From: Candidatus Saccharimonadia bacterium
Lineage (GTDB): Bacteria; Patescibacteriota; Saccharimonadia; Saccharimonadales; UBA4665
Assembly: GCA_035479335.1 (NCBI GenBank)
Contig: DATIIU010000002.1
Span: forward strand, 37,716 to 101,715
Direction: 5' to 3'
DNA: 64,000 nucleotides
A program made the translations under genes and the position numbers. Of this stretch, positions 7,194-64,000 are shown one piece after another (positions within the stretch are counted from its first letter, which is position 1; every line of letters starts with the position of its first letter). A model generated the notes under the pieces. The model made no database searches. It saw only the letters and a program-made list of their open reading frames with translations, and was not told where the DNA came from.

Positions 7194-7822
7194 ATGTTAA
7201 GACTACTGGGCCCACAGTTCCGCCTTCAGGGGTACTTTGACAAATCAGATCATTACAGTACATAACGCCTATATCTACCAAGATGTAGGTTGTTACGTGT
7301 ATATCAGGGCAGAACAGAGGTAGGGAAGGCTGGCTAGCATTATCCGGCTAGCGCTTGGCGCTAGTATTCCTTGTTTCTGGTCTGCTCTGGTTGAGCGTTT
7401 TTGTGAGGGCTATAACTAGCCATCCAATAGTAGCTCCCGTAGCAGAAAACTGTAACGCTTACTTTTAAATCTATGTGCTAATTAGGTAACTAACTAGAAC
7501 AATTGGTTTTGCAATTTTAGTGTATGGCAAAGCAACTATGTACAAAGATAGGAGTTTTCCTGAATGACTTTAGGAGAGGCAATTGTGCTCAGCTACAAAA
7601 ACAGTAGCCGGGTGCGGTTGCCTTTCCTATCGGCACAATAGGAATTACCTCGCTTTGTGCATTGCAGCCGCATGTACAAACTGAAGGACAAGCAGACAGA
7701 TTCACCAGCACCATCGTGCCGCAACTGTGCAAAAGACATCCGCGTCCTAGCGCAGACTCCCATCCGCCTGCTTCGGGAATCTCCCGAACAGACCGTCCGC
7801 AAGGACAGAGAAGGGTTACGCC

Positions 7823-8728
7823 ATGACCACCATGGACATCCGCGAGGAAGAGCTCCGCGAAGCTCTCGACTACCGCTCAACTGGCGGTGACGCCGGGTTC
7901 ATCGACGCGCTCTACCGTCGCGGCCACAGCGTCGAGACCATCCGGCGCGTGCTCGGCACGGTCAACAGCTACGACTCCGACTACTCGGACGAGGAGCTCA
8001 TCGCCGACCTGTTCGACTCGCACCGCGCCCTGAAGGACCGCGTCGACCGGCATGACATCATGTTCGCCGAAATCTTCCGTCGCCTCGACGACAAGGTCTC
8101 CAAGCGGACGTGGGCCGTCTCCATCATGGGATGGGCCGTGATGACCGTGCTGCTGTTCCTCCTCGACTGGCCCGGCACCAACGCGGCCGCGCACATCATC
8201 CAGGTGGTCTTCGGCTTCGGCGTGTTCTGCTTCGTGATCTACGCGGGTTCGCGCAACACGGAGCGCTCGTCCGACAACCGGAACCGCTGGACCCGTTCCA
8301 GGAACCGCTCCCGCGGCTCTCGCTCCGCTCACCCGGCACCCCGTCCCGCCGCTGTCCGCCCGCCGTCCCGCCCGGGTTCCGACACCGATCGTCCCGACCG
8401 CTCCCGCGGCTCGGCACGCTCGGGCGTCCTCCCTCGCGTCGGCGGCGAGCCCCGTACCTCCCTCGACGATCTCCTGGAAGGGTCTCACGTCGATGAGTAC
8501 CCCGTGGACGACGTCCATGAGGAGATCGAAGCTCGTCGCACCGACCCCAACGTGGGGAACGCCTTCGCCCACCTCGGCCCCGAGTCCGGCGTCGTCGGTT
8601 CCACCCCTGTCGGCTCCGGCCGTCCCGCCGCTGTCCGCCCGCCGTCCCGCCCGGGTTCCGACACCGGTGGCTCCCGTCCCACCCGCAGTCCCGCCGACGA
8701 CGTCTTCTTCAACCAGGACGAGGACTAG
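7823..8728 (+). CDS. high-GC hypothetical membrane protein with Arg/Pro/Ser-rich disordered tail (island A)
   Basis: 301 aa. GC3-rich codons, two central TM helices (WAVSIMGWAVMTVLLFLL, IIQVVFGFGVFCFVIYAG), repeated RPAAVRPPSRPGSDT. GAAGGG lies upstream of the ATG. Confidence 0.6.
   Translation: MTTMDIREEELREALDYRSTGGDAGFIDALYRRGHSVETIRRVLGTVNSYDSDYSDEELIADLFDSHRALKDRVDRHDIMFAEIFRRLDDKVSKRTWAVSIMGWAVMTVLLFLLDWPGTNAAAHIIQVVFGFGVFCFVIYAGSRNTERSSDNRNRWTRSRNRSRGSRSAHPAPRPAAVRPPSRPGSDTDRPDRSRGSARSGVLPRVGGEPRTSLDDLLEGSHVDEYPVDDVHEEIEARRTDPNVGNAFAHLGPESGVVGSTPVGSGRPAAVRPPSRPGSDTGGSRPTRSPADDVFFNQDED
8341..8676 (+). repeat. 47-bp perfect direct repeat (8341-8387 and 8630-8676) inside the island A ORF
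   Basis: CCGTCCCGCCGCTGTCCGCCCGCCGTCCCGCCCGGGTTCCGACACCG occurs twice, 289 bp apart, in the same frame. Confidence 0.9.
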
Positions 8729-8797
8729 TTGGTAGTTCGTACCACCTGACACTTGCGACCAGCGCCGCTGAGTTCGCCCGAACTAAGGAAGACAGTA

Positions 8798-10078
8798 ATG
8801 AGCAAAAGGACTTCGCGTTCCGGCGCCCTCATCGGCCTCGGATTCACGGCGGTGGCCGTGACTGCGCTCTGGCCGGCTATCAACAGCTCGGCTTCGGCCA
8901 ACGGCCCCGGCAAGCCCGGATCATCCGCCTCGGCCACGGCTTCCGCCACCGCCACCGGTTCGACCACCAGCCCGACGACCACCGTCACGACGTCCGCTCC
9001 GGCTCCCGCCGTGGCCAAGTCGTGCGACATCACCGGGATCGTGTTCTACCACAAGGATGCCACCGGCGACGACTTCGGCCCCAAGCCGACCGTCACCGAC
9101 TCGGCTTCAGCTGGGAAGCACTTCGAGGACAAGTTCTGTCCGTCCAAGGGCGCCAGTGACCCGTCGTTCGCCGCCGTGATCATCACTGCGCACGCACGAG
9201 CGGTCGCGACGCACACGAGCGGAGTCGACTCCACCACCGTCACCCAGGCGCAGGCTATGGCCACCGCGTGGGTCACCGGCAAGGACACCACCGACTGGAC
9301 CTCCAAGGTCACGGTCTTCGTGAAGACGATCGCCTCCTACGAGGTCAAGCAGGACAACAACCCGGTCTACTCCACCTTCAACATGCAGGGCGGCAAGGAC
9401 GGCCAGCCCACGCTGACCTTCACTGACAACGTGAACCACCCGGCCGGCCTGGTCGTGGTGATCCACTTCAACGACGGAACTCCGGACATGACGCTCCGGC
9501 TCGACTGCGACCTGCAGCCGACAACGGACGTCGCTGTGACGCCGAGCCCCACCACGGGTCCGACGACGCCGCAGCCGACGGGTTCCCAGGCGCCGCCCTG
9601 CACCACCTGCGGTGGCACCACGCCGTGCACGACCTGCAAGACCAGTACCACCCCGCCCCCGTGCGGAAGTGCGTGCAACCACACGACGCCGCCGACCACC
9701 CGGCCGACGACGCCGTCTTCACCGCCCCACAGCACCACCCCGCCCCCGCCGGCTCCCAAGCCCGCGCCGCTCATCGTCGACTACACTCGACTGAACGACG
9801 TGGACGCCGGACAGAGTTCACCCAACTACCGGGTGATCGTCCAGTTGGCCAGCGGCGACAGTGGCACACTGTGCATCAGCTCGGCCTACGGGTCGATCAG
9901 CACTCCGTGCTTCTCGGTCGGCGGCGGTGTCACCACCAAGTACGTGACCTACACGGCCCCGTACGACGCCGGCACCGGATCCGACACCATCACGATCAAC
10001 CTGACCGACAACACTCTCGGCAAGACGGTCTCGGCCTCGGACACCTTCAAGGTGAACCCGCCCCCGGTCCGGCCGTAG
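8798..10078 (+). CDS. high-GC secreted protein with Thr/Pro-rich and Cys-containing linker (island A)
   Basis: ATG at 8798 preceded by AAGGAAG. Signal peptide MSKRTSRSGALIGLGFTAVAVTALWPAINSSASA. The linker TPQPTGSQAPPCTTCGGTTPCTTCKTSTTPPPCGSAC separates two beta-rich halves. The ORF-track start at 8753 lacks an RBS. Confidence 0.65.
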   Translation: MSKRTSRSGALIGLGFTAVAVTALWPAINSSASANGPGKPGSSASATASATATGSTTSPTTTVTTSAPAPAVAKSCDITGIVFYHKDATGDDFGPKPTVTDSASAGKHFEDKFCPSKGASDPSFAAVIITAHARAVATHTSGVDSTTVTQAQAMATAWVTGKDTTDWTSKVTVFVKTIASYEVKQDNNPVYSTFNMQGGKDGQPTLTFTDNVNHPAGLVVVIHFNDGTPDMTLRLDCDLQPTTDVAVTPSPTTGPTTPQPTGSQAPPCTTCGGTTPCTTCKTSTTPPPCGSACNHTTPPTTRPTTPSSPPHSTTPPPPAPKPAPLIVDYTRLNDVDAGQSSPNYRVIVQLASGDSGTLCISSAYGSISTPCFSVGGGVTTKYVTYTAPYDAGTGSDTITINLTDNTLGKTVSASDTFKVNPPPVRP

Positions 10079-10091
10079 TACCCGGCGTGCC

Positions 10092-10183
10092 CCTCGGTGA
10101 GCTCACTGCTTCGGCAGCGGACGTTCGCTCAACGCTTCGGCGATGAGAAGACGGCCGTGGGATTCCCCATGAGCTCACCGGGG
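10092..10183 (+). terminator. GC-rich nested inverted repeat 3' of island A ORFs
   Basis: Outer 14-bp stem CCTCGGTGAGCTCA (10092-10105) / TGAGCTCACCGGGG (10170-10183, one G-T pair). Inner hairpin CTGC-TTCG-GCAG (10106-10117). No T-tail. Confidence 0.4.
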
Positions 10184-10417
10184 CCACCCGATGACAGTTA
10201 GTGATATTTAGTCACGCAATTCTCCCAATAGGGATCCGAGTTGCGTGTGAGCATATAGTACAAGAGTACAACAAGCGTTACAGGCGTGTGTTAGAGAGGG
10301 TAAGCGACAGCTTACATTTTGCCTTACGGCATCAAAAACTCTCTGCACTAACCCTTAATGTTTTGTAATGATCTGATTTGCAGAGAAGGTTTCAAGCTAG
10401 GTTACTAGCTCGCAATT

Positions 10418-10446
10418 TTGACAGATTATAATTATTATGCTACAAT
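10418..10446 (+). promoter_or_regulatory. sigma70-type promoter for the LPXTG gene
   Basis: TTGACA (10418-10423), 17-nt spacer, TACAAT (10441-10446). Confidence 0.45.
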
Positions 10447-10574
10447 CAACTCAACCATTAGCGTGGTTGGTGGGGATCTTTCAAGCAAGTGGCATTTGCA
10501 AGTTAACAATTTATCCTGTGTACCAACCCCTAATAACTTCTATCAATTGATATTTTAAGGAAGGAGACATAGCT

Positions 10575-11570: not shown

Positions 11571-11631
11571 TCCTCTTCTAGATAGGTAGCGCAGCATACA
11601 GAGCAAGACTGACCGCTCAAAAAACTGCGAA

Positions 11632-11664
11632 AGCCCCGTGATCATAACGATGACGGGGCTTTTA
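11632..11664 (+). terminator. intrinsic terminator
   Basis: AGCCCCGT ... ACGGGGCT hairpin followed by TTTT. Confidence 0.65.
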
Positions 11665-11992
11665 CTATCTATAGGGCAATTATTGCCAAGTTGGCAAAGA
11701 CTGTGGACAAGTACTAGCGTAATACGTAAAACTATGCTAGTCTGTCACACAGAAGTAAAAAGAGAGTACTCGTGACTGACCGCTCTTAAATTCCCCTATG
11801 CTAGCGCAAGGGGATTTTATTTTTGTATCTGTTGTGATATAATTTTCGAGTCGTTTTTGTTATATAGAAACTGGCAGAATCTGGCTCATGCGCTTATGAC
11901 CCAGAAACCTTGGCCTCATATGCAAAGCATATGAACCCGTTCGCTCGGAAGATAATTTTATGTGAGCATAAAATGTGTCTTCCTTCGCTTAC

Positions 11993-12067
11993 GGCCTCAT
12001 CGTCTAGCGGCTAGGACACCGGGTTTTCATCCCGGCAACCGGAGTTCGATTCTCCGTGAGGTCACCA
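11993..12067 (+). tRNA. tRNA-Glu(UUC): tRNA-Glu (anticodon UUC), CCA encoded
   Basis: Cloverleaf folded by hand. Acceptor GGCCTCA/TGAGGTC, anticodon stem CCGGG/CCCGG with loop TTTTCAT, T-arm GGAGTTCGATTCTCC, 3' CCA. Close to the E. coli tRNA-Glu pattern. Confidence 0.93.
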
Positions 12068-12082
12068 ATTGAAATAATAGAT

Positions 12083-12167
12083 CAAAAAGAGTTCGACAAT
12101 TTATTTTGTCGAACTCTTCATTTTTCGCCATCTCTGTAAAATGAGTTTCGATTCACTTTGGGTGGCT
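12083..12167 (+). repeat. copy 1 of an ~85-bp imperfect direct repeat (terminator hairpin plus tRNA-3'-end-like remnant)
   Basis: CAAAAAGAGTTCGACAATTTATTTTGTCGAACTCTT...CTCTGTAAAATGAGTTTCGATTCACTTTGGGTGGC. The hairpin 12089-12116 plus T-run also acts as the tRNA terminator. Confidence 0.75.
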
Positions 12168-12294
12168 TCGCTCGTATTTTTAAGCCTAGCAATAGATGTT
12201 CGATTGGATAAATTAAGTCTGCAAAAGTACTTTATAGACACTAGACACTTGAGTGGTAGTACTTTATAATTCCAAGCAAGGACTATAAAGTACT

Positions 12295-13401
12295 ATGAAG
12301 CCAGATCCAACAAAACCCTACAACGCCTTACCTCACCTACCGCCTGAAGTGGACCTGAAAGATCAGCGATTATTGCTAGCTGCTTTAGAAGCAAGTGAGG
12401 CGATAGCCGAGCTTAAAACAATGCTGACATTAAGTAGTCGCAGCGTCAGTAATACTGTCGATTTGCTCTCACCTCTATTTGTCCCAGAAGCGGTTTCGAG
12501 TTCGGGTGTGGAGAATATTATTACGACGAATAATAGCGTTTACATAGCCAAAATCCTAGAAGAGCGTGAGTTGAGCCCTGCAGAGAAGGAGGCACTTAAC
12601 TATACGAGCGCGCTTGGAAGTGGTATCCAAATTCTAATAACTAAGGGTTTCTTGGCGACAAATGATTACATAAAAATGCAAGCAATATTGGAGCCCAACA
12701 AAAAAGGTGTTCGTAAATTGCCTGGTACGCAACTTGCGAATCCCGCAACCGGTGTCGTTTATTACACTCCTCCTGAAGGTGAAGAACGTATTCGTGGTTT
12801 ACTCAAAAATTTTGAGGATTACTTTAACGACGAGGCTCCCATTCACGAAGTATTTGCGCGAATGGCGATGCTGCACTATCAATTTGAGGCTATCCACCCC
12901 TTTAGTGATGGCAATGGGCGTACGGGTCGCATGCTCATGCCACTCTACCTTATGAAGCAAAAACGGCTTCCCCTACCAGTGTTATTCATTAGCCACTATA
13001 TCTTAGAACATCGTGATGAATATTATAAAAAGTTACGTGCCGTAACTTCAGACGGTAACTGGATGGAGTGGATTCTCTATATTACTATCGCAACTACCGA
13101 ACAAGCAAGGTATACATGTCAGATCCTAGAGAAGATAAGACGTGCTATTGAGTCGGTAAAAAAAACTCTGAAAGAAAAACTTCCTGCGGTCTATAGTTCA
13201 GAACTTATCGATTTCCTATTTTCAAACGCCTACTTCACACAGAAGGGTTTTGAAGAAGAAATAGGTGTTAGCCCCATGACGGCCCGCCGCTACCTCCAAG
13301 AGCTTGAGCGAGAGAAGGTGATAGTCAAGCAAAAACAGAATGGCAAGAATCGATATTTATACATCACGCCACGTTACATCGGCATTCTTAAGCAAGCTTA
13401 G
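12295..13401 (+). CDS. Fic family protein (AMPylator class with N-terminal inhibitory helix and C-terminal wHTH)
   Basis: 368 aa. Fic motif HPFSDGNGRTGR. N-terminal (S/T)xxxE(G/N) inhibitory motif SSGVEN. Confidence 0.92.
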   Translation: MKPDPTKPYNALPHLPPEVDLKDQRLLLAALEASEAIAELKTMLTLSSRSVSNTVDLLSPLFVPEAVSSSGVENIITTNNSVYIAKILEERELSPAEKEALNYTSALGSGIQILITKGFLATNDYIKMQAILEPNKKGVRKLPGTQLANPATGVVYYTPPEGEERIRGLLKNFEDYFNDEAPIHEVFARMAMLHYQFEAIHPFSDGNGRTGRMLMPLYLMKQKRLPLPVLFISHYILEHRDEYYKKLRAVTSDGNWMEWILYITIATTEQARYTCQILEKIRRAIESVKKTLKEKLPAVYSSELIDFLFSNAYFTQKGFEEEIGVSPMTARRYLQELEREKVIVKQKQNGKNRYLYITPRYIGILKQA

Positions 13402-13557
13402 TGAGCTGTAGGCTCATTCATTGGCGACCTAGGGTATATCGTTGCTCCTGGCTCAATCACGCCAAGCATCTTCAATCGTAACTCAATATATTTTACCTCA
13501 CTGAAGAGGGCTTCGACCCTAGCCACCCCTAGGTTCACCATATGAGATTTACAGAGA

Positions 13558-13638
13558 CAAAAGAGTTCGAAGATTTATTTTCTCGAACTCTTTTTGTTAT
13601 GTAACTCTGTTAGTCGGGTTCGATTCTGCTTGGGTCAC
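13558..13638 (+). repeat. copy 2 of the ~85-bp repeat
   Basis: CAAAAGAGTTCGAAGATTTATTTTCTCGAACTCTTTTT...CTCTGTTAGTCGGGTTCGATTCTGCTTGGGTCAC. The last 25 nt resemble the tRNA-Glu T-arm/acceptor GGAGTTCGATTCTCCGTGAGGTCAC. Confidence 0.75.
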
Positions 13639-13678
13639 ACGGCGATTAAATATATCAGCTAGATGGTATTATTAAAAA

Positions 13679-14209
13679 ATGAAAAAAGCCGTATTCGTCA
13701 CAGCCGTTTCGGGCTCTGGAAAAACGACAGTCTGCAAGGCTTTGGCTGAACTTGGTTACGAAGCGTACGATATCGAGAGTATCCCTGGCTTATTCTCGTT
13801 AGTCGATGAAGACACGGGTCAGATCATATCAAAAGAAATCGGTGACCTTAAAGAAGGTCTTAATGCCGATTGGGTGTGCGATATCCAAAAGCTAAAAACC
13901 ATAATCATCAATCAAAAAGCTGAGATAGCATTTTATTGCGGCGGTACAAGCCGTACCGAAGAGCTCATGGTGGCATTTGATTGCACAATCGTATTGCAAG
14001 TCTCGGACGAAACGACACGAGCAAGACTCGCTACCCGCGGAGCAGGTGAATTCGGGAGCACGGAAACGGTCAGGGACTGGGTCATAAGCTGGAAGCATAG
14101 AGTGGAGTCGGATTGGCTATCTGCGGGTGGAATTAGTGTTAACGCCGAACCAGAGCCTAGCGCAGTCGCTCAAAATATTATTGATCGATTCGCAAACGGC
14201 TCACAATAA
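13679..14209 (+). CDS. P-loop NTPase / small-molecule kinase-like protein
   Basis: 176 aa. Walker A VSGSGKTT near the N-terminus. Size and layout match adenylate/shikimate-kinase-like AAA proteins. Confidence 0.7.
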   Translation: MKKAVFVTAVSGSGKTTVCKALAELGYEAYDIESIPGLFSLVDEDTGQIISKEIGDLKEGLNADWVCDIQKLKTIIINQKAEIAFYCGGTSRTEELMVAFDCTIVLQVSDETTRARLATRGAGEFGSTETVRDWVISWKHRVESDWLSAGGISVNAEPEPSAVAQNIIDRFANGSQ

Positions 14210-14355
14210 TCGCTCAGCCTAGGAAGATAGCACTAACCTTGCCTCATACCAGCACATGATTTCTGCCGCAGCAACCTTATAAATCGGGTGGGCTAGGGCC
14301 ACTACGTAAGCGCATGCTTATTGACGAGAATAGTTTACAGTAGTACATATAAGTC

Positions 14356-14934
14356 ATGATGAAAATAAAAAACAAACAAGACGGCTTTACTCATATTCTA
14401 CTGCTAGCTGTAATAGGTGTGCTAGTAGTCGGTATCTTCAGCGTTGTTTATGTAAAAGTTAATAATGCCTCAGATAAAAAGAGCGTAAATAGTGATGCTA
14501 CTAAAAATACAAGTACGTCAAAAAAGACTACTGTTACCCCAGTTGCGCTTGCTCCGGCGGATAAAGCAACCACGGTGACTCCCAAAACGACGACAACAAC
14601 TCCTACCACTAACTCAACTCCCACGGTAACTCCTAAAAACGCTGCGCCGATTAAGACAAGCCCGGCATCAAACATCGTTCACCCCACAATCGCCAACTGT
14701 AATCGACAGAACTTCACTGTTTATGCTAGCGTACCTTCTGGGACACCGGCATACAGCGAAGGTAATTTTTCTCAAGTGCTTTACACGTGGCCGTATGGCT
14801 CAGCAATTACTGATGTGTACTGTGACTCCGGCGATAGCAAACAGATGGTCTTTCGCGTAGATAATCCGGGTTCCCCTGATACCACCCAGTACAGTGCCTA
14901 TCATTGGGCTGATGTGAGCTTAACCAAACCCTAA
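14356..14934 (+). CDS. membrane-anchored hypothetical protein with Thr-rich linker (prepilin-like N-terminus without Glu+5)
   Basis: 192 aa. KQDGFTHILLLAVIGVLVVGIF resembles a class III signal (G|FT) but lacks the conserved Glu. T/P-rich spacer and a Cys-containing globular C-terminus. Confidence 0.6.
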   Translation: MMKIKNKQDGFTHILLLAVIGVLVVGIFSVVYVKVNNASDKKSVNSDATKNTSTSKKTTVTPVALAPADKATTVTPKTTTTTPTTNSTPTVTPKNAAPIKTSPASNIVHPTIANCNRQNFTVYASVPSGTPAYSEGNFSQVLYTWPYGSAITDVYCDSGDSKQMVFRVDNPGSPDTTQYSAYHWADVSLTKP

Positions 14935-14973
14935 TTAGGAAGTAGTTTGACTCTGTGTGGGGCACACTATATA

Positions 14974-15516
14974 TTAGATGGCCTTTTGATGATAGCGGTA
15001 GGTTGGTGACTCTATAACTGTCATCGGAGATTTGAAGCCTACGGGGTTACGGGCATACAGCTGCCGATGAAGGCCATTCGTTGCAATAGGCGCATACTGA
15101 ATAGGCGCAACCTCTACTTTCGTGCCATTCTTACCCGGTGCATGCACGTACGACTCTGCGTCACGAACGATACCAATATGAGTAGGGAAAGTTCCATGAC
15201 GCGAAAAGAATATGAGGTCTCCAGATTCTTGTAGCCCGTCGTGAACAGTCGCACCATAATGGTCCCAGAAATCATTGGCATGACGTAAGGTTCGGCGAGC
15301 GTTATCCTGCCCGATAAAGTCTGGAATATGTAGTCCTGCTTCAGATAGAACAAATCGTACAAAGCCGGAACAATCAAAACCCGATGAAGGTGACTGTCCG
15401 CATTCAGGATGCTCGGGTACATATTTTATTGAAGGACGATCAATTAAACCATTAGCTACGCTAATGATTGCTTCGCGGTAATTTTCTGCAACACACTCCT
15501 CAGTAATTAGACGTTT
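14974..15516 (-). CDS. NlpC/P60 family cell-wall cysteine peptidase; open frame lacks ATG/GTG/TTG at its 5' end
   Basis: My own translation of the minus strand gives ...RPSIKYVPEHPECGQSPSSGFDCSGFVRFVLSEAG...GDLIFFSRHGTFPTHIGIVRDAESYVHAPGKNG... with the Cys-His-His signature. The frame is open from the stop at 15517-15519 to the TAA at 14974-14976. It is not in the supplied ORF track. The track's ORF 15114..15422 is the wrong frame of the same DNA. Confidence 0.7.
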   Translation of the reverse strand, partial: KRLITEECVAENYREAIISVANGLIDRPSIKYVPEHPECGQSPSSGFDCSGFVRFVLSEAGLHIPDFIGQDNARRTLRHANDFWDHYGATVHDGLQESGDLIFFSRHGTFPTHIGIVRDAESYVHAPGKNGTKVEVAPIQYAPIATNGLHRQLYARNPVGFKSPMTVIESPTYRYHQKAI

Positions 15517-15742
15517 TTAGAGAGAATGCAGCCTGACTACTGAAAACTTGACCAGGTCGTAGTGTGTTTATTGACTAACATAAGAAAGCACCAGCTTATA
15601 ATTTTCTTTAGTATACACGAAGGGCCACATCTACTAGCGCCTAACAGCGCATGCTAGCAAATGATTGCAACGATAATTGAGTATAAAACGGATGGCCTAG
15701 GGTCGCCATACAAGATCAGCAAACACCATAGCAGTGGCGATG

Positions 15743-15776
15743 AAACCTTCACATTTTGTGGAGGTTTTTATTATTT
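15743..15776 (+). terminator. orphan intrinsic terminator-like hairpin
   Basis: AAACCTTCACA-ttt-TGTGGAGGTTT followed by TTATTATTT. No annotated plus-strand gene lies upstream. Confidence 0.4.
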
Positions 15777-15860
15777 AAAGTGTAGTTGACCTTAGGCTCT
15801 TGAACTTGATAGTCTGAAGCACAGGCGATTTATATAAACATATGCAAAGTGAGGGGCTGT

Positions 15861-16502
15861 ATGGTAGAGGCTGTTTGTTTAGATGTTGGTGAAACGCTCA
15901 TAAATGAAAAACGAGTATGGGCTATGTGGGCCGATTGGCTCAAAGTACCCAAGCATACCTTTTCTGCTGCGCTGGGTGCGGCCATAGTTCGGAATGATTT
16001 TTTGAGTGTTTTCAAATCGTTTAGGTCTGATTTTGATCTTGAAGATGAGTTTGCAGCAAGGCGACGCGCGGGCAAGCTGTGGAAACCTGAAATAGCTGAT
16101 CTGTATGCTGATGCTCAGCCCGCAGTGCATCAACTTGGGGCGCTTGGGATACGTGTTTGTATCGCTGGCAATCAAGAAAGCAGTATGGGTTCATTCCTGG
16201 AAAGGGCATTCCCAACCGCTGACGTTATTGCAACATCTGAAGCATGGGGTGTTAGCAAACCATCGCCTGATTTTTTTGCAAAGGTATGCTATGTATTGGA
16301 TTTACCGCCCGAAAAGATTGTTCATGTTGGTGACCGGCCGGATAATGATGTATATCCGGCTCAGGAAGTCGGGATGCCGACCGTACAGGTGATGCGCGGA
16401 CCCTGGGCGTATATTCTCGATAAGCCTACAGGGCTTGCCTTGCCGCATGCGACTATCCAGTCTCTGGGCGAATTACCAGGTGTGCTTGCGGATCTTGGAT
16501 AG
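15861..16502 (+). CDS. HAD-superfamily hydrolase-like protein
   Basis: Motif I region CLDVGETL (second Asp replaced by Gly). Motif IV HVGDRPDNDV. ATG at 15861 follows GAGGGG. The track start at 15849 is a GTG without an RBS. Confidence 0.7.
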   Translation: MVEAVCLDVGETLINEKRVWAMWADWLKVPKHTFSAALGAAIVRNDFLSVFKSFRSDFDLEDEFAARRRAGKLWKPEIADLYADAQPAVHQLGALGIRVCIAGNQESSMGSFLERAFPTADVIATSEAWGVSKPSPDFFAKVCYVLDLPPEKIVHVGDRPDNDVYPAQEVGMPTVQVMRGPWAYILDKPTGLALPHATIQSLGELPGVLADLG

Positions 16503-16622
16503 TGTATTGCAGCTTGATGGTTCTTTGACTTGTTAGCAATTCACTAGAATTATTCCAAGTTAGAGAAGTTTGACGGATTGCTTTGTTGTATACTAGTATT
16601 CTTAAATACTTGAGGATACTGT

Positions 16623-17120
16623 ATGTCAATTGAAACAGATACGCAGGGTGAGTTTGGTGGCTATCTTTCAACAACTCTTGACGATCCTGGTAGATGGATG
16701 AGGTCGCGGATGGGAATATTGGTTTTATCTAGATCAACTGCGCCAAGTGGTAATCAGGTTGCTGTACGTTTTGGATTTCCAGATGTGGAATCCAGTATAA
16801 AAGGATTTAGAGATAGGCGAGGCTGGCTTGTAGCGTCAGAGATTGCAGGAAAACGGCGCCTTGATATCGTGCCGGACCAGTCTTACTTAGCAGACTATCG
16901 TGGTGGGATTCATCGACTTCCTGATGATACTACGGCGTTACGGAATATTGGACGTGGGATATTGCTCCTGACAACCAATCCCGATGAGGATGGTGTAGTT
17001 GTTGAGATGACAGTACCTTGCAACCACAGAATCAACGCACTAGATGTTGCTACATTAAATGGCGAATCTCTGATCCCATATGAATCGTTGCAGTTCGCAG
17101 AAGACCCCGTTGCTGATTGA
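16623..17120 (+). CDS. hypothetical protein
   Basis: 165-aa ORF with backbone composition. No motif recognised. Confidence 0.5.
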   Translation: MSIETDTQGEFGGYLSTTLDDPGRWMRSRMGILVLSRSTAPSGNQVAVRFGFPDVESSIKGFRDRRGWLVASEIAGKRRLDIVPDQSYLADYRGGIHRLPDDTTALRNIGRGILLLTTNPDEDGVVVEMTVPCNHRINALDVATLNGESLIPYESLQFAEDPVAD

Positions 17121-17289
17121 TTTCTCCCCAAAGAGTAGCAGAAATGCGCAATCTAGTATTTCCGAAGTCTCCGTTTTAGCTCAAAGGCTTCTTAGCGTGT
17201 TAATGTAACCTTTTCATGACAAGTTCACAATTCTTTGTAGCCGGTTCCAACGCTTATGGTAAAATATCAGAAAGAATAAGGGATATCAT

Positions 17290-20403: not shown

Positions 20404-20553
20404 TACCACTGACAACTAGAAAGTAGCGCACAGTACATCTGTTGTCGGGCTTTACTGGCTATTGTATAGTTATTGTTTTAATGGTACGGTAGCAACGTTA
20501 TTCACCTATACAGTGATAACAGGTCATTTGCAGTCGAGACAGGAAGGGATCCC

Positions 20554-22260
20554 GTGTCACCCCGCTTCAGGTACTTCCGCGATCCACCGGCGCAAGGTAA
20601 GAGATTGCCCACGCCGCCGACCAACTACGAGAGAAAGGTGTATGTACAACGGCGTCTATGGTGGCTGACGCCTCTGTCGATGGTGTCCTTTACGGGTATC
20701 ACCATCTCGCAGGTTCTGTTCGGGCTGCGTCATCCGGCGCTGTTCGTCTTCTTGCCCCTGACCGCCTTCACGGTCTTCTACTACATCATCAGCCTGATGG
20801 TGACAGTCGGGTCGAAGGACTTCGACTACGATCGTCATGTCGAGCTGGTGAGCGACTGGTGGGAGCGGGTGAAACTTGGTCATGGGATGACGGCGCCCAG
20901 CGTCGACATCCTTTTGCCGATCTGCGGCGAGCCGATCCAAGTGATCCTCAACACCTGGCGCTACGTCAAGGAGCTCACCTATCCCGGTGTCGTGAAGGTC
21001 TATGTCCTCAACGACGGCCCCGATGGCCAGGACGAGGCGTTCCTCAAGCAGGAGGCGGCAGATCTGGGCTTCGTCTACCTCCGTCGCCCGGCTCGGACCG
21101 AAGCGAACACCCTGAACTTCAGGGGTGCCGAGAAGAAGGCGGGCAACCTGCACCACGGTCTGACTTACAGCGATGAACACGACCCTGGTGAGCTCGTCGT
21201 CATCTTTGACGCGGACTTCGTGCCAGCGAACATGATGCTGATGCACATGGTGCCCTACTTCTGGCGCTACAAGGGCCGGGGACACGACAAGGGCCTGGGT
21301 CTCTTGCAAACACCGCAGTACTTCCGCACCTGGAGCTCGCACATGGGCTGGCTGGAGCGCGGTGCGGGTGCTGTGCAAGAGTGGTTCTACCGCATCTCGC
21401 AGACCAGTCGCGAGCGGTGGGACGCCTCGATCTGCGTGGGCACTTGTGCCATGTACAGTCGGAAGGCCTTGAAGGAAAACGGCTGGACGACACTGATCGA
21501 GCACTCCGAGGACGTGCACACCGGGTACGACCTGCGTCGACTCGAGTGGCAGCTGATGTACATCCCCGTCGCTCTGTCGACTGGGATCTGCCCGTCGGTG
21601 CGCTCCTCCTTCCTCGCACAGCAGTACCGTTGGTGCATGGGCTCAATGAGCCTGCTCACCAGCCGCAAGTTCTGGAGCCTCAAGATGCCAATCCGCGCTC
21701 GCGCGGGGTACCTGTCGGGCTTCAGCTACTACATCCACACCGCCATGTTGACGTTTGTGGCTCCGGCTATCCCGCTGGTGCTGCTCGTGTTCTACCCGGA
21801 GATGGTGTACGCCAAGAACTATCGGCTCATCACGCCGAGCTTGGTGTACACGCTCGTGGCGGTACCGCTCTGGCACCGTAGCAAGTTCGGCTTGTCTGCG
21901 TTCGCCGTAAAGATGGTGTACGGCTGGGCGCACGTGTTCGCACTGCTCGACAAGGTTCGCGGCCGCCAGAAGGGCTGGCAAGCGACCGGCAACGCTGGTT
22001 CTACCCGAGGGATGCTGGACAAGCATTTCCTCGTAGGTACGATCGGCTGGGGCTGTACAACGGCCCTGGCTTGGATCGGGCTCGCAGTGTGGCGTGCTAC
22101 TATCGCCCCTGGAGTCGGCTGGGTGAACTTCATGCCTATGCTGGCATCGGGCTTGGTCTACGCGGCGGTCGTCGGTAAGACGCTCACCAAGACTGAGAGG
22201 TCCGAAGATCCAGAGTCGGACGACCAACTGGTCATGGAGTTGAGTGACAGTGACCGCTAG
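20554..22260 (+). CDS. high-GC processive family-2 glycosyltransferase (cellulose-synthase-like BcsA/CesA type) (island B)
   Basis: 568 aa. GTG preceded by AGGAAGGG. Motifs VLNDG, VIFDADF (DxD), QTPQYF, HSEDVHTG (TED), QQYRWCMG (QxxRW). TM helices on both sides of the catalytic domain. Hand count for 21001-21060 is 39/60 GC. Confidence 0.88.
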   Translation: MSPRFRYFRDPPAQGKRLPTPPTNYERKVYVQRRLWWLTPLSMVSFTGITISQVLFGLRHPALFVFLPLTAFTVFYYIISLMVTVGSKDFDYDRHVELVSDWWERVKLGHGMTAPSVDILLPICGEPIQVILNTWRYVKELTYPGVVKVYVLNDGPDGQDEAFLKQEAADLGFVYLRRPARTEANTLNFRGAEKKAGNLHHGLTYSDEHDPGELVVIFDADFVPANMMLMHMVPYFWRYKGRGHDKGLGLLQTPQYFRTWSSHMGWLERGAGAVQEWFYRISQTSRERWDASICVGTCAMYSRKALKENGWTTLIEHSEDVHTGYDLRRLEWQLMYIPVALSTGICPSVRSSFLAQQYRWCMGSMSLLTSRKFWSLKMPIRARAGYLSGFSYYIHTAMLTFVAPAIPLVLLVFYPEMVYAKNYRLITPSLVYTLVAVPLWHRSKFGLSAFAVKMVYGWAHVFALLDKVRGRQKGWQATGNAGSTRGMLDKHFLVGTIGWGCTTALAWIGLAVWRATIAPGVGWVNFMPMLASGLVYAAVVGKTLTKTERSEDPESDDQLVMELSDSDR

Positions 22261-22287
22261 TTCCTGTCGCTAGTCGACAACGGAACT

Positions 22288-22323
22288 GAGGCGGGGGCGC
22301 AAACACCCACGCGCCCCTGCCTC
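22288..22323 (+). terminator. GC-rich hairpin 3' of the GT2 gene
   Basis: GAGGCGGGGGCGC-aaacacccac-GCGCCCCTGCCTC (13-bp stem, one G-T pair), no T-tail. Confidence 0.5.
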
Positions 22324-22420
22324 ACCCTAAGCGTTTATACGAGCTACGTGCTCATTCAAATGCTTAGGTTTTGCTTCCATGAATGTGTATTCATGCTGAT
22401 GAGTTCAAAAGAACGAAAAG

Positions 22421-22465
22421 CATCTCTAGGGTGTTCGATTGCCCACAACTCTATATGCTACTAAG
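22421..22465. repeat. degenerate copy of the 23051-23120 promoter/leader repeat
   Basis: CATCTCTAGGGTGTTCGATTGCCCACAACTCTATATGCTACTAAG aligns with CATCCTAGGGTGTGTTCGGGTCTCCGAAGAGATCTATATAGTATTAAA. Confidence 0.5.
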
Positions 22466-22473
22466 TTGTTGCC

Positions 22474-22515
22474 TCAACTAAATACTGCAGGATCGTTCCT
22501 GGAGTACTTAGTTGA
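22474..22515. terminator. 18-bp-stem hairpin beginning GCCTCAACTAAA (family-1 slot terminator)
   Basis: TCAACTAAATACTGCAGG-atcgtt-CCTGGAGTACTTAGTTGA, 16 of 18 positions paired. Its first 12 nt with the preceding GC are identical to the hairpin at 34559. Confidence 0.55.
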
Positions 22516-22543
22516 AGACAGATTGGATAGCAGTGACGCGCAT

Positions 22544-22603
22544 GGCGGTGGGTAGTGTCCGAAGACAACTGTAGACTGGGCTAATCCCAGGTTACCCACC
22601 GCC
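22544..22603 (-). terminator. GC-rich nested inverted repeat 3' of the cassette C ORF
   Basis: Outer perfect 11-bp stem GGCGGTGGGTA (22544-22554) / TACCCACCGCC (22593-22603). Inner hairpin CTGGG-ctaat-CCCAG. Confidence 0.45.
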
Positions 22604-22640
22604 CGCGCGACTACTGGTATCACGCTGCCCTCAGCTCGTA

Positions 22641-23045
22641 CTAGACGCTTGCTGACACGCCGTTCATCAGTTGCCGGAGGTTGTGCATGAGCGCGGCCAG
22701 GTCGACAGTGATGTCGCACGAGCTCTCTCCGGGCTGACGGAAGCGAGTCACCTCGATGTACATCTTGGCATCAGCGAGGGCATCCCCCGTGAAGCAGTCG
22801 ATGAGTGCGTCGATGGAGATCGGGGCATCGGTCTGGTCCGATGCCGTGATTGTGTACTGCCGGCTGCCTGGGGCCTGGTTCTCGCCAGTAGTGGTTGCTG
22901 AGGGGTGCTTCCCTTCCGTGAGTGTTGGGAGCATGCCCCAGACCGTGAGCGTCACCTCGTAGCCGGTGTCAGCCCATGAAGCCTGGAGATGCGCCTTACC
23001 CGTAGCCCGGCTGGACCTGCTGCGGTGTTGTTGAGAACGGAGCAT
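22641..23045 (-). CDS. high-GC hypothetical protein (cassette C cargo)
   Basis: 134-aa ORF with GC3-rich codons. The ATG is 7 nt downstream of the right inverted-repeat arm. No motif recognised. Confidence 0.5.
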   Translation of the reverse strand: MLRSQQHRSRSSRATGKAHLQASWADTGYEVTLTVWGMLPTLTEGKHPSATTTGENQAPGSRQYTITASDQTDAPISIDALIDCFTGDALADAKMYIEVTRFRQPGESSCDITVDLAALMHNLRQLMNGVSASV

Positions 23046-23050
23046 CGTGG

Positions 23051-23120
23051 TTCCAATCTGTTGTTAACACATCCTAGGGTGTGTTCGGGTCTCCGAAGAG
23101 ATCTATATAGTATTAAAACA
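23051..23120. repeat. promoter/leader repeat, full copy (upstream of cassette C cargo)
   Basis: The 40-nt core GTGTTCGGGTCTCCGAAGAGATCTATATAGTATTAAAACA (23081-23120) is 37/40 identical to 25094-25133. On the minus strand it reads TTAAGA-18-TATATA followed by a hairpin leader. Confidence 0.8.
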
Positions 23121-23201
23121 CTTTTTGTCTTAAATGACCACTGGCATGAGCCAGCATAATTTATTTACACAATAAAATAAAAGTGATACTTTAAAGTTAT
23201 C

Positions 23202-24503: not shown

Positions 24504-24591
24504 AGGATTCTAGGACATACCATTAAACAATGATGGGTACGTGTAGTTACCTTATTTCTGGTATTCTGGAGTAAAGGGAGACTACGAACGA

Positions 24592-25050: not shown

Positions 25051-25081
25051 CCTATCTTATTTATGGATGCTAGCTAGTCTA

Positions 25082-26705: not shown

Positions 26706-26801
26706 GGTATTTCTGGATCACGATTTCTAGGGTATAGTAAAAACATAAGCAAAACATAAGTCTTTAGTCGGCTCCGAGTAAGCCGTTATCCAGGGGGTGG
26801 C

Positions 26802-52109: not shown

Positions 52110-52817
52110 ATGGATACGACCGCATACCAACAACTAGCAAAAGAAAAACTAGGTGGTGAATTTAAGAATCTTGATCTCCTGATCACGGCTTTGACGCACC
52201 GCAGCTACTTAAATGAGCACCGTAACACGGTAAAAGAACATAATGAACGTTTGGAATTTTTAGGCGATGCGGTGCTTGAACTAGTCGTGACTGAATTTTT
52301 GTATGGTAACTACACCGAGCCGGAAGGAATTCTAACCAACTGGCGAAGCAGCTTGGTACGGACCGAATCAATCGGAGCGGCTGCGGATCGGCTTGGTTTT
52401 GAGTCGCTGCTGCGTTTAAGTCGCGGCGAAAAGCGTGGGACCGAGCGCGCTCGAGCTCAAATATTAGCTAATAGCTTTGAGGCGGTCACCGGTGCTCTGT
52501 ACCTAGATAAGGGCTACGAGGCTGCCAAGACCTTCATTACCGATAATATTTTAAGTACCTTTAGCGAGATTTTAAAAAGTGGCTCCTGGATGGATCCCAA
52601 GAGTCACCTACAGGAGGTAGTGCAGGCACAAGGTGGCTCAACGCCGCAGTATAAGGTTATGGCGGAAGAGGGACCTGATCACGATAAGACCTTTACCGTC
52701 GGTGCCTATGTTGATGGTGTGATACAAGGGCAAGGTGTTGGACCTAGTAAGCAAGCAGCACAAGTCGCTGCCGCCACTGCTGCGCTTAAAAAATATGCCA
52801 ATAAGCAGGATAATTGA
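52110..52817 (+). CDS. rnc: ribonuclease III
   Basis: Signature ERLEFLGDAVLELVV plus a C-terminal dsRBD. Confidence 0.95.
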   Translation: MDTTAYQQLAKEKLGGEFKNLDLLITALTHRSYLNEHRNTVKEHNERLEFLGDAVLELVVTEFLYGNYTEPEGILTNWRSSLVRTESIGAAADRLGFESLLRLSRGEKRGTERARAQILANSFEAVTGALYLDKGYEAAKTFITDNILSTFSEILKSGSWMDPKSHLQEVVQAQGGSTPQYKVMAEEGPDHDKTFTVGAYVDGVIQGQGVGPSKQAAQVAAATAALKKYANKQDN

Positions 52818-63051: not shown

Positions 63052-63156
63052 ATGAAAAAAGCCGCGTCGAGTTTCTAAGATAATGTTGTGTATGGGGTAA
63101 AGCATTCTTTGTGCTTTATAACAAACAACTCTACTCAAGTAACTTTCGTGCGGCTT
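63052..63156 (-). repeat. family-2 terminator module, copy A (105 nt)
   Basis: The minus strand reads AAGCCGC-N-AATGCTTTACC-N-ACGCGGCTTTTTTCATG, a 7-bp outer stem plus T6. It abuts the GC-rich hairpin of cassette H. Confidence 0.7.
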
Positions 63157-63216
63157 AAGCCCAACTGCTCTGCGTACGCGCGTGTTCGCGTGCAGCTCCT
63201 TTGTGGAGTTGGGCTT
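63157..63216 (-). terminator. GC-rich nested inverted repeat 3' of the cassette H ORF
   Basis: Perfect 10-bp stem AAGCCCAACT / AGTTGGGCTT with a GC-rich structured 40-nt loop. Confidence 0.45.
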
Positions 63217-63229
63217 GTTCGTCGGCGGA

Positions 63230-63535
63230 TCAGTCGTCGTGGTTGGTGTCCTGCGCGTTGACCTGGGCGGCCAGCTGCCTACGGAGCACGTCCATGGACA
63301 GGTGGATCGGCAGGCCGATCGCGACCGCGAACATGGCGACTGCGAAGGCGAGGATGGGCATGCCGGACCAGGAGAGGCGCACCACGTAGTCCTGGAAGCC
63401 GGAGCTGGAGTTGGCGATCGAGCTGAGCCAACCAGCGGCCATGACACCATAGGTCAGGGCTACGAAGGTGACAACCAGCGCGAGTTTGGGACGGCGCACC
63501 AGGAAGGTGGCGGTGAATCTGACGAACGACAGCAT
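63230..63535 (-). CDS. high-GC small membrane protein (cassette H cargo)
   Basis: 101 aa with about 3 TM helices. GAGAGGAAA lies upstream of the ATG. GC3-rich codons. Confidence 0.55.
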   Translation of the reverse strand: MLSFVRFTATFLVRRPKLALVVTFVALTYGVMAAGWLSSIANSSSGFQDYVVRLSWSGMPILAFAVAMFAVAIGLPIHLSMDVLRRQLAAQVNAQDTNHDD

Positions 63536-63575
63536 TGCTGTTTCCTCTCGGGTTGTGAGGCGGTGCCTCGCTAAC

Positions 63576-63604
63576 GAACTTATATATTATAGTATAATGT
63601 ATAA
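63576..63604 (-). promoter_or_regulatory. consensus sigma70 promoter reading into cassette H
   Basis: Minus strand TTGACA (63604-63599), exactly 17 nt, TATAAT (63581-63576). It sits in AT-rich DNA directly abutting the GC-rich leader. Confidence 0.55.
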
Positions 63605-63668
63605 ACTCTGTCAACTTTCCCTCAGAGATAAGAGTTGAGGATATTGTCGGCTGCGAAGGTGTATTTGG

Positions 63669-63769
63669 GCATGAAAAAAGCCGCGTGGAATTGTTGATGG
63701 TGGTACAGGTAAAGCATCTAATAGGACGCTAATAACAATTGTACGTTCCAATCCGCATTTTGGCGGCTT
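63669..63769 (-). repeat. family-2 terminator module, copy B (101 nt)
   Basis: The minus strand reads AAGCCGC-N-GATGCTTTACC-N-ACGCGGCTTTTTTCATG. The ends and the central ATGCTTTACC block match copy A. Confidence 0.7.
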
Positions 63770-63770
63770 G

Positions 63771-63812
63771 CCCCAGGGGTCCAACAGTGACTTGGAGTCT
63801 TTCACCCTGGGG
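63771..63812 (-). terminator. GC-rich inverted repeat 3' of the cassette I ORF
   Basis: CCCCAGGG / CCCTGGGG with inner TCCAA/TTGGA hairpin. Confidence 0.4.
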
Positions 63813-63838
63813 ACTTCGTTTGTAGAGTGGCCGTAGTG

Positions 63839-64000
63839 CTACTCCCAGCGCCACATCAGCGCCTTCATGGCTGCCCTCTGGACCGCTTTGTACGCTTGGT
63901 AGAACATCAGCTTGGTCCGGAGCAGGCACGCGAATGCACCCACCCACAGAGCTGCGCCTACTATCAGGTAGATAGTTGCGAACAGCCAGTTCGTGAGCGT
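63839..64000 (-). CDS. 3' end of a GC-rich membrane-protein gene (cassette I cargo), 5' part outside the window
   Basis: My own translation from position 64000 in frame gives TLTNWLFATIYLIVGAALWVGAFACLLRTKLMFYQAYKAVQRAAMKALMWRWE, then a stop (TAG at 63841-63839). The track's 63729..63947 ORF is a different frame. Confidence 0.5.
   Translation of the reverse strand, partial: TLTNWLFATIYLIVGAALWVGAFACLLRTKLMFYQAYKAVQRAAMKALMWRWE

Follow-up and report, generated by a model that had tools for sequence, protein, structure and literature searches.

Scattered GC-rich genes in a Saccharimonadales chromosome are probably resident single-gene transcription units rather than freshly captured host DNA

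Introduction

Genomic islands gained by horizontal gene transfer (HGT), as treated in the amelioration model (Lawrence and Ochman, 1997), are recognised by abrupt changes in composition, unusual codon usage, cargo of accessory or envelope genes and variable presence among relatives. Nine short GC-rich blocks, lettered A to I, have this look in a 64,000-nucleotide (nt) stretch of the chromosome of a Candidatus Saccharimonadia bacterium (hereafter the window), whose sequence is carried by the public metagenome-assembled genome (MAG) record GCA_964491855.1 on contig CAZBGX010000001.1. The likeness extends to a distant higher-GC affinity of one gene, the family-2 glycosyltransferase (GT2) gene of block B. 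The blocks differ from HGT islands in having no mobility genes and no tRNA-gene attachment, in having their closest relatives in the same lineage with the same deviant composition, in their native and conserved untranslated regions (UTRs), and in a GC content at third codon positions (GC3) that stays extreme past saturation while that at first positions (GC1) is host-like, the reverse of the amelioration order. On balance, we regard the islands as genuine chromosomal single-gene transcription units of one Saccharimonadales clade and not as freshly captured host DNA. The units are inherited in place, with coding parts that evolve very fast while the UTRs are conserved.

Persistent deviant composition is also familiar from surface-antigen loci, such as the clusters for O-antigen and capsule in enterobacteria, which are low in GC, and vls in Borrelia, which is GC-rich. 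Like these, the window cassettes are hypervariable envelope genes between conserved flanks, their composition deviates across species, and homologous replacement through the flanks is plausible. They differ in being single genes of 0.4-2.6 kb, scattered among housekeeping genes and provided with their own structured UTRs, in that no silent donor cassettes were seen, and in deviating toward GC in a mid-GC genome of the candidate phyla radiation (CPR). The likeness to HGT islands is thus one of composition only, and that to surface-antigen loci one of logic.

A third comparison is with integron cassettes, which are likewise short one-gene units with an imperfect palindrome at the 3' end of the open reading frame (ORF), and in which unrelated ORFs share a type of 3' element. 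The window units have no integrase, form no array, possess their own promoters and carry 3' elements that are orthologously conserved in place. A reading of the 3' elements as attC sites was rejected, since inspection found no GTTRRRY/RYYYAAC core boxes in them, no integrase lies in the window and the units are scattered.

Results

Composition and authenticity of the islands

Scanning the GC content in 200-nt windows with a threshold of GC>57% delimits the following blocks:

7648-10271: GC-rich block, 66.0% GC
20525-23111: GC-rich block holding B and C, 59.1% GC
34538-35295, 36805-37754, 40107-40763, 41171-41821 and 63110-64000: further GC-rich blocks

The window has 49.0% GC as a whole and 46.5% without the islands (standard deviation 4.2% per 200 nt). 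A first-pass annotation, made from the sequence by eye, had marked nine blocks and given hand counts of single 60-nt lines. All five counts were reproduced exactly (41.7, 73.3, 65.0, 66.7 and 66.7% GC), and the nine blocks, recomputed, have 58-66% GC with sharp steps. The true frame of an island gene was taken to be that with the GC3 maximum, which places the genes of C, D, E, F and H on the minus strand, correcting the earlier strand reading, and makes the long plus-strand ORFs over them shadow ORFs. In these frames GC3 is 0.71-0.94, compared with 0.451±0.043 (range 0.35-0.55) in 49 backbone ORFs, so that the compositional step, atypical for the host genome, holds when computed (z = 6.0 to 11.5); mean GC1 is 0.593 in the islands and 0.579 in the backbone. 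By a regression reported by Lawrence and Ochman (1997), the island GC3 values would imply a donor of 61-75% GC. Since the gene for ribosomal protein S16 and the glycolytic genes have backbone-like GC3, the island values do not reflect codon selection for expression.

The names of its sister records suggest a MAG co-assembled from short reads, and the islands might be an assembly or binning chimera. This possibility is effectively refuted. Logan single-run contigs (SRR9179560, SRR9179562) span C (window 22375-26809), D (33711-35425) and E, F and G together (35756-41947), and they match the window at 99.98-100% with both junctions of all five islands included, which excludes chimerism for these. 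Moreover, B and D recur at 100% identity in another NCBI MAG, the genes A2, B and C lie at the same places in a sister species, and the inserts are intact genes set precisely into intergenic DNA.

The sister loci are all named Candidatus Saccharibacteria or Saccharimonadales, in keeping with the suspected CPR affiliation, and the window contains a tmRNA, a tRNA-Glu and a tRNA-Ala. As first reported, there is no integrase or transposase by Pfam among the backbone ORFs scanned in the window, and no reverse transcriptase (RT) either. Direct repeats at the island flanks do not exceed the backbone level, except for a trailer repeat common to H and I, and the hallmarks of genomic islands (mobility genes, tRNA-gene attachment, flanking direct repeats) are not found within the window. 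A prophage reading was rejected, its defining features being absent. The cargo is, as had been proposed, mostly envelope protein, with transmembrane helices, signal peptides or a lipobox visible on translating A1, A2, B, E, G and H. Pfam matches only B among the island ORFs (GT2 domains); PHROGs and NCBIfam gave nothing useful on them except a CelA-like match of B, tblastn of A1, A2 and C to H against phages and plasmids gave no match, and scans of IMG/VR with E, A2 and the C family returned no relative.

The plan of the units

The units share one plan, in which an AT-rich sigma-70-like promoter and a structured leader are followed by an extreme-GC3 ORF with backbone-like GC1 and by a GC-rich 3' RNA structure. 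A very stable structure of this kind lies behind every island gene (in A2, B, C, D, E and G with z -4.3 to -8.8). Behind C, D and E it is Y-shaped and three-way; A2 is followed by a compound hairpin, and B by a hairpin with a predicted hammerhead ribozyme. The cassettes had been said to end in backbone-type terminators. AT-rich terminators are indeed present in several units, but beyond a conserved GC-rich 3' structure of the unit's own. The 3' structures, the ribozyme and a pairing of 5' with 3' arms described below may determine where the mRNA ends on its 3' side, how stable it is and how accessible its ribosome-binding site is. Each of the three is a candidate for a new kind of RNA regulation, which has hardly been explored in this phylum. 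The window also has an RNase III gene (52110-52817), whose product is a possible processor of long GC-rich stems and 5'-3' helices.

Inheritance in place

Relatives were found for four of the island genes:

8798-10078, plus strand: A2, 426 amino acids (aa) from its ATG, GC3 0.89; secreted, with Thr/Pro-rich linkers
10090-10260, plus strand: compound GC-rich 3' hairpin after A2; minimum free energy (MFE) -64.5 kcal/mol, z -5.2
20554-22260, plus strand: B, GT2, cellulose-synthase-like, 568 aa, GC3 0.81; GT2 domains by Pfam
22641-23045, minus strand: C, 134 aa, GC3 0.76, fast evolving; on two Logan contigs
36921-37655, minus strand: E, secreted, 244 aa, GC3 0.94
37656-37760, minus strand: E leader and promoter, AT-rich, -35/-10-like; 72% identical to the comparison locus L096
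36835-36913, minus strand: E 3' structure with inner hairpin GGUUGUCC-loop-GGACACC; MFE -62.8 kcal/mol, z -8.8

The sister species GCA_964478195.1 has A2, B and C in the same slots. The proteins A2, C and E are 34-46% identical to their relatives, compared with 84-91% for backbone proteins, and the UTRs are 72-92% identical where the coding parts have diverged. For A2, the C-terminal 100 aa are 46% identical to the same-slot ORF of the sister genome (locus L085, 46-351), directly upstream of the ortholog of the backbone gene p331; the coding sequence of this part is 60% identical at the nt level and the 3' UTR 91-92% over 166-182 nt. The ortholog of C in L085 lies in the same slot next to P0002, the sister's copy of B, with 39-40% aa identity and GC3 0.82. 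A further relative of C is a weakly C-like ORF in another slot (locus L014, 8675-9226, minus strand; E 2e-4). As with B and E, the relatives of C are GC3-rich islands set in backbones of 45-50% GC. A full HMMER scan of 1.84 billion cluster representatives with E returned E itself and P0123 (L096) only, the latter a GC3 0.80 island in a backbone of ~45% GC. These two proteins are 34-37% identical, their fourfold degenerate (4-fold) sites are saturated (identity 0.42 observed vs 0.35 expected), and their 3' UTRs are 86-93% identical, with a compensatory change in the inner hairpin.

The matches of B run from P0001 (100% identical, Saccharimonadia) through P0002 (81%) and P0003-P0005 (53-55%) to a very large family at 45-50%. 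P0002, from the closest sister species (GCA_964478195.1), follows the pectate-lyase-like gene in the same slot, is 81-82% identical and has GC3 0.79 in a backbone of GC3 0.40-0.52. P0003 (locus L089) and P0005 (L092) are likewise islands of one gene each; their GC3 is 0.94 and 0.88, and the backbones around them have GC3 0.41-0.54 and ~50% GC. B and P0002 to P0005 form a clade in a neighbour-joining tree (98/100 bootstrap), and P0018, the next sequence outside it, is on a uniformly 59% GC contig.

Between the window and the sister, synonymous sites of the backbone are near saturation: 4-fold identity is 0.38-0.41 for the two larger flanking genes (the pectate-lyase-like one and pyk) and 0.54 for p331. 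The GT2 gene of L089 also has a pectate-lyase-like neighbour, 71-74% identical to the window's at the aa level; between these two neighbours 4-fold sites are fully saturated (0.25 observed, 0.25 expected), and between the GT2 genes they are near saturation (0.42 observed vs 0.37 expected), with a GC content at these sites (GC4) of 0.80 and 0.91. GC3 is 0.8-0.94 despite synonymous sites at or near saturation, and we therefore infer in-place maintenance of the GC-richness, as opposed to a decaying relic of transfer. Besides saturation with unchanged GC3, the monophyly of the GT2 copies, the conserved AT-rich leaders and the backbone-like GC1 point the same way.

A shared leader and trailer framework around unrelated ORFs

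The clearest common architecture is that of C and D:

23046-23125, minus strand: C leader with AT-rich -10 box, two leader hairpins and 5' arm ACAGATTGGA (23052-23061) overlapping the Shine-Dalgarno region
22471-22611, minus strand: C 3' module, a Y-shaped GC-rich three-way structure with 3' arm (22518-22527) and AT-rich terminator hairpin (22474-22515); covariance model R1, 140 bits
34714-35235, minus strand: D, 173 aa, GC3 0.86; ORFan
35236-35320, minus strand: D leader with -10 box, hairpins and 5' arm ACAGATCAGGAGG (35243-35255) with the Shine-Dalgarno sequence
34559-34699, minus strand: D 3' module of the C-type family with 3' arm (34606-34618); R1 127.8 bits, fold z -6.0

One framework encloses the ORF in four cassettes, namely C, its L085 ortholog, the C-like gene of L014 and the unrelated D. 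It starts with an AT-rich -10 box, two leader hairpins and a 5' arm composed of ACAGAT and a variable extension over the Shine-Dalgarno region, and it resumes after the ORF with a Y-shaped GC-rich element (inner hairpin UAUGGUUGUCC-loop-GGACAC), a complementary 3' arm and an AT-rich terminator hairpin. The covariance model R1 picks out just these four cassettes, with scores of 119-146 bits, and the leader of C is 79% identical to that of L085. The ORF of D shows no homology to the C family by hhalign, and a word-indexed search of 5.8 billion proteins, including assemblies of the same runs, returned only D itself; a fold prediction (AlphaFold2, single sequence, pLDDT 40) was discarded. The earlier proposal that GC-rich cargo sits in AT-rich native promoter and terminator slots is borne out here, with the unrelated ORFs of C and D inside one conserved leader/trailer framework.

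The two arms (10-15 nt) are 87.5% paired with five pairs changed on both sides, compared with 29-45% for a slid partner, although they were picked for their complementarity. The covarying pairs are ACAGATTGGAA with TTCCAATCTGT, GACAGATCGGAAGAA with TTCTTCCGATCTGTC and, in D, ACAGATCAGGAGG with CCTCCTGATCTGT, the D arms forming a 13-nt perfect inverted repeat (35243-35255 with 34606-34618). In A, B, E, G and H a search for such 5'-3' arms stayed at the background level. The closest described arrangement is the fold-back inhibition element of the type I toxin mRNA hok, in which a covarying helix of 10-15 bp likewise joins the leader, including the Shine-Dalgarno sequence, to the mRNA 3' end. The window ORFs differ in encoding 134-183 aa, not small toxins, no antisense RNA is known for them, and their pairing is predicted from sequence.

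A metagenome search with the pattern ATCTGTCYNCAACYAAG matched at least 120 stretches; among the matches listed 0/80 scored with R1, and these were set aside as chance, yielding no further cassettes. The Y-element of D (34628-34698, minus strand) has a full-length match to the Rfam family RT-13 at 27.5 bits, well under the gathering score of 69.1 (E about 0.05). RT motifs are RNAs found beside reverse transcriptase genes (PMC5737381), and the likeness is a weak lead only. The C-type promoter with its first leader hairpin recurs alone at 25093-25133 (93% identity), between a NUDIX gene and pyk; an arm-like ATTGGAA motif follows, and no ORF comes after it. Possible readings of this copy are a cassette slot that is empty or decayed and a promoter in antisense.

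The glycosyltransferase and its hammerhead

The gene product of B had been called a BcsA-like glycan synthase. It matches TIGR03030 (CelA) partially, at 127.9 bits with a cutoff of 699, and Pfam gives GT2 domains only, with no C-terminal PilZ domain. The most fitting label is that of a processive GT2 in the Streptomyces CslA-like group. Two RNA elements follow it:

22288-22325, plus strand: GC-rich hairpin directly after B, 13-bp stem; folded region z -5.7
22370-22424, plus strand: predicted type III hammerhead ribozyme in the B 3' UTR (Rfam RF00008)

The hammerhead match is full-length with a complete CUGAUGA...GAAA core and E 4e-5 to 1.6e-4, at 35.1 bits against an Rfam gathering score of 48.5. 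A hammerhead also follows the GT2 gene in L085 (about 7125-7180) and L092 (about 7657-7712), and over the three genomes the element is 95.8% paired, with two compensatory pairs in stems I and II. By alignment, the core, helices I-III and an H at the cleavage site, which define type III, are all in place. Like the bacterial type III hammerheads of RF00008, the putative ribozyme has the complete core, three helices, a C or U at the cleavage site and covariation in stems I and II. It differs in its sub-threshold score and in its setting, which is the 3' UTR of a chromosomal Saccharibacteria glycosyltransferase gene and not a phage or retroelement; its cleavage is a prediction. The term 'hammerhead ribozyme' was absent from the top-ranked literature matches for hammerhead ribozymes combined with CPR, Patescibacteria or Saccharibacteria. 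Both Logan contigs over C begin at 22375, within the ribozyme, which hints at a repeated sequence elsewhere in the genome or community.

Discussion

Recent capture, passive decay or long residence

The first-pass annotation had concluded that DNA from a high-GC donor was captured repeatedly. Its lineage, its real islands, their envelope cargo and their slots stand, and its recent capture from a host does not. By a homologue check set beforehand, A2, B, C and E each have their nearest homologues within the lineage, and these are just as GC-rich in composition. For naked high-GC DNA, for instance of an actinobacterial host, to have entered intergenic expression slots of a competent epibiont repeatedly and fairly recently is attractive in several respects. 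Natural competence and epibiosis on Actinobacteria are reported for Saccharibacteria (PMC10633639), the GC3 of 0.71-0.94 and the GC-rich 3' hairpins resemble high-GC genomes, and all organism-named relatives of B other than P0001 are Streptomyces-type (Actinomycetota) GT2 proteins at ~49% identity. Syntenic sister loci hold other GC-rich ORFs in the slots of D, E, F and G and no homologue of these, and C and D share slots while their ORFs are unrelated. We nevertheless consider such capture unlikely, and for A2, B, C and E it is contradicted. All islands with relatives have them in Saccharibacteria-type backbones, GC-rich alike and with conserved AT-rich leaders; the GT2 copies are monophyletic; GC1 is not donor-like; the searches with D (5.8 billion) and E (1.84 billion) gave no relative in a high-GC context; and phage, plasmid and viral collections gave nothing. 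Relatives in a uniformly high-GC genome were not seen at all, except for the remote GT2 family. A distant affinity to Actinomycetota was seen in B alone. A single round of ancient high-GC transfers followed by slow passive amelioration, with no maintaining force, is in our judgement rather unlikely as well. It would account for the polarised changes in B, for a GC3 that is lower in the islands common to window and sister (B 0.81, C 0.76) than in E, F, D and H (0.86-0.94), for a 4-fold identity of the B pair (0.61) that fits partial decay from about 0.95, and for the 59% GC contig of the nearest outgroup of the GT2 clade. It does not account for the GT2 genes of L089 and L092, which keep GC3 0.94 and 0.88 though the adjacent backbone gene is fully saturated relative to the window, or for the E pair, saturated yet at GC3 0.94 and 0.80. 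Backbone-like GC1 combined with extreme GC3 is moreover the reverse of the codon-position order that the Lawrence-Ochman and Muto-Osawa relations reportedly lead one to expect under amelioration. Pure amelioration is an explanation of some features of B, not of the deeper comparisons.

The case for resident, maintained units also has evidence against it, which needs to be set out. For D, E, F and G the syntenic sister loci yielded no homologue, the closest genome being only ~80% identical at the aa level. The 4-fold identity between B and its sister ortholog (0.61) is above that of the backbone, and it could mean later lateral spread between the two species. Changes in B, polarised by a parsimony that is itself biased, comprise 10 from G/C to A/T and one in the reverse direction, and its GC4 of 0.79-0.82, compared with 0.86-0.91 in outgroups, is a sign of ongoing amelioration. 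The arm covariation of the C and D framework could reflect independent insertions into different palindromes, and the selection of the arms and the sub-threshold score of the hammerhead, given above, count on the same side. Finally, the comparison covers 2 to 5 genomes per family in short loci, and D, F, G, H and A1 are without relatives, so that long residence is a presumption for these five. In the sister genomes the slots of D, E and F are filled by other small GC3-rich ORFs (0.70-0.75):

L005 638-1051, plus strand: GC3-rich ORF in sister slot
L005 1464-1694, plus strand: GC3-rich ORF in sister slot
L005 4656-5039, minus strand: GC3-rich ORF in sister slot
L014 8675-9226, minus strand: GC3-rich ORF in sister slot, weakly C-like

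Apart from the L014 ORF, these have no detectable similarity to the cargo of the window. Weighing both sides, we retain the reading of the islands as resident transcription units of the clade. For B, a single entry into the lineage from an organism of higher GC is probable; it is taken as a xenologue on account of its named relatives, which are of Actinomycetota type at about 50%, and of the 59% GC contig that holds its nearest outgroup. The cassettes, or at least B, would be ancient xenologues that were domesticated into common post-transcriptional frameworks.

A literature search found no description of persistent GC-rich genes in these bacteria. It follows from the residence of the units that HGT detection and host prediction based on composition would wrongly call them recent imports from an actinobacterial host, the deviant composition being heritable in the lineage. 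GC3 of 0.8-0.94 past saturation in a background of 0.45, with backbone-like GC1, challenges the standard picture of amelioration, and the cassettes offer a tractable system to test GC-biased conversion or silent-site selection in bacteria.

What keeps the silent sites at G/C

Our preferred guess, and a tentative one, is that the maintaining force is frequent homologous replacement together with GC-biased repair or conversion. In a competent lineage, the hypervariable and mostly envelope cassettes would often be replaced by homologous recombination through the conserved UTR arms, and GC-biased repair or conversion of the heteroduplex would hold the silent sites at G/C. To our knowledge, the published effects of GC-biased gene conversion in bacteria amount to a few percent in GC3, not 40 points, which tells against this guess. 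The main rival is selection on RNA, by which GC-rich silent sites would be kept for stable, slowly translated or nuclease-resistant mRNAs of one post-transcriptional regulon. Such selection would be in line with 3' structures conserved under purifying selection, with a hammerhead conserved in three genomes, with a covarying 5'-3' pairing that overlaps the ribosome-binding site, with the RNase III gene in the window and with predicted folding energies per 120 nt of about -40 kcal/mol in islands vs about -28 in the backbone. Synonymous shuffling, however, reveals no mRNA structure in the island coding sequences beyond that due to composition (z about -0.9 in islands, -0.7 in the backbone), a null result that we also count against the reading as maintained resident units, and we know of no precedent for selection that holds GC3 at 0.9 in a 0.45 background; we rate this explanation as decidedly unlikely.

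Two more far-reaching explanations involve the cassettes as dedicated elements. In one, hypervariable 'GC-locked' cassettes would be rewritten by a locus-specific process that drives their silent sites to G/C. The process might be addressed by the conserved UTR structures, that is the faintly RT-13-like Y element, the 5'-3' arms and the ribozyme, and might consist in GC-biased recombination or repair of transformed DNA or in a retroelement-like rewriting between the arms. We think this improbable; if true, targeted gene diversification would have a new mode, and the amelioration rule a counter-example. A diversity-generating retroelement was considered and rejected, there being no pair of template and variable repeats with adenine-specific differences and no RT in the window. 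In the other, the inverted repeats of C, D and F would act at the DNA level, as recombination sites of invertible or non-autonomous mobile cassettes or as split palindrome arms. Flanking inverted repeats are indeed prominent (C 17 nt, 82%; D 13 nt, 100%; F 16 nt, 100%) where only 1/49 backbone genes has one with a score of at least 13; an ACAGAT core is common to C, D and the L014 cassette, ordinary terminators of the window also carry CAACAGAT...ATCTGTTG stems, and a solo C-type leader without cargo occurs at 25093-25133. Yet a recombinase gene is absent from the window, the arms differ among cassettes beyond 6 nt, as sites used by one recombinase would not, only one orientation occurs in the contigs, and the F arms of L005, paired by G-T (G-U) wobble, favour pairing in RNA. 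DNA-level action is accordingly very unlikely in our estimate, and homologous replacement with GC-biased repair or conversion stays our preferred guess.

The remaining cassettes

The other units are as follows:

7823-8728, plus strand: A1, 301 aa, GC3 0.87; membrane protein with a disordered Arg/Ser/Pro-rich tail, frame assigned by GC3
40091-40872, minus strand: F cassette with ORF 40201-40704 (ATG 40659), GC3 0.89-0.92; 16-nt perfect inverted repeat 40091-40106 / 40857-40872
41250-41651, plus strand: G, lipoprotein-like, 133 aa, GC3 0.71; lipobox LGGC in the translation
41745-41815, plus strand: GC-rich long hairpin after G, 16-18 bp stem; folded region z -4.3
63052-63535, minus strand: H cassette with membrane ORF 63230-63535 (GC3 0.88), GC-rich 3' hairpin 63157-63216 and an AT-rich element ending in GCGGCTTTTTT
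63672-64000, minus strand: I, a second H-type trailer element (63672-63775) and the 3' part of a GC-rich ORF that leaves the window

The 5' arm region of F is 87% conserved in L005, where the arms still pair solely via G-T (G-U in RNA) wobble. Homology of F was found neither to the C family (hhalign) nor to the same-slot L005 ORF (Smith-Waterman). For E, a fold prediction by AlphaFold2 from the two-sequence alignment was discarded (pLDDT 43).

Just upstream of G a hairpin occupies 41131-41182, with 25-nt arms that are 88% complementary, a 2-nt loop and an ATCTGTT motif resembling the junction arms of B, C and D. The trailers of H and I (63052-63160 and 63672-63775) consist of an AT-rich element of ~100 nt, AAGCCGC...GCGGCTTTTTT, with a conserved GTAAAGCAT inside; the 17-nt direct repeat CATGAAAAAAGCCGCGT stands at 63052 and 63672. 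The element could be a module akin to a terminator, or else a small RNA that recurs in cassettes arranged in tandem. A1 has no match in Pfam, PHROG or NCBIfam, and it contains a 67-nt internal direct repeat (8341-8407 and 8620-8686, 87% identity) corresponding to a repeated RPAAVRPPSRPGSDT segment in the disordered tail.

Gene calls on the wrong strand

The public gene calls for the MAG miss G and place antisense ORFs over B, D, E and F:

20656-21519, minus strand: antisense MAG gene call
21643-22026, minus strand: antisense MAG gene call
34672-35250, plus strand: antisense MAG gene call
36840-37676, plus strand: antisense MAG gene call
40291-40737, plus strand: antisense MAG gene call

As a consequence, exact-sequence look-ups of B and E fail. 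Gene callers trained on the backbone are misled by GC3-rich genes in a mid-GC genome, and envelope proteins of CPR bacteria, probably proteins of host interaction, are partly hidden from protein databases through such miscalls.

Observations in the backbone

The 150 nt upstream of p331 (10425-10574) are 88% identical to the sister, with other intergenic controls at 60-63%, and may represent a conserved leader or a small RNA. Beyond p331, the window holds 5.7 kb of backbone-composition genes at 11571-17289 (tRNA-Glu, Fic, AAA_18, HAD and others), while in the sister the p331 ortholog abuts the pectate-lyase-like gene; gene flux at this place is therefore not limited to GC-rich cargo. Within this segment, the Fic gene (12295-13401) is flanked by 91% identical copies of a palindromic terminator at 12085-12118 and 13559-13592.

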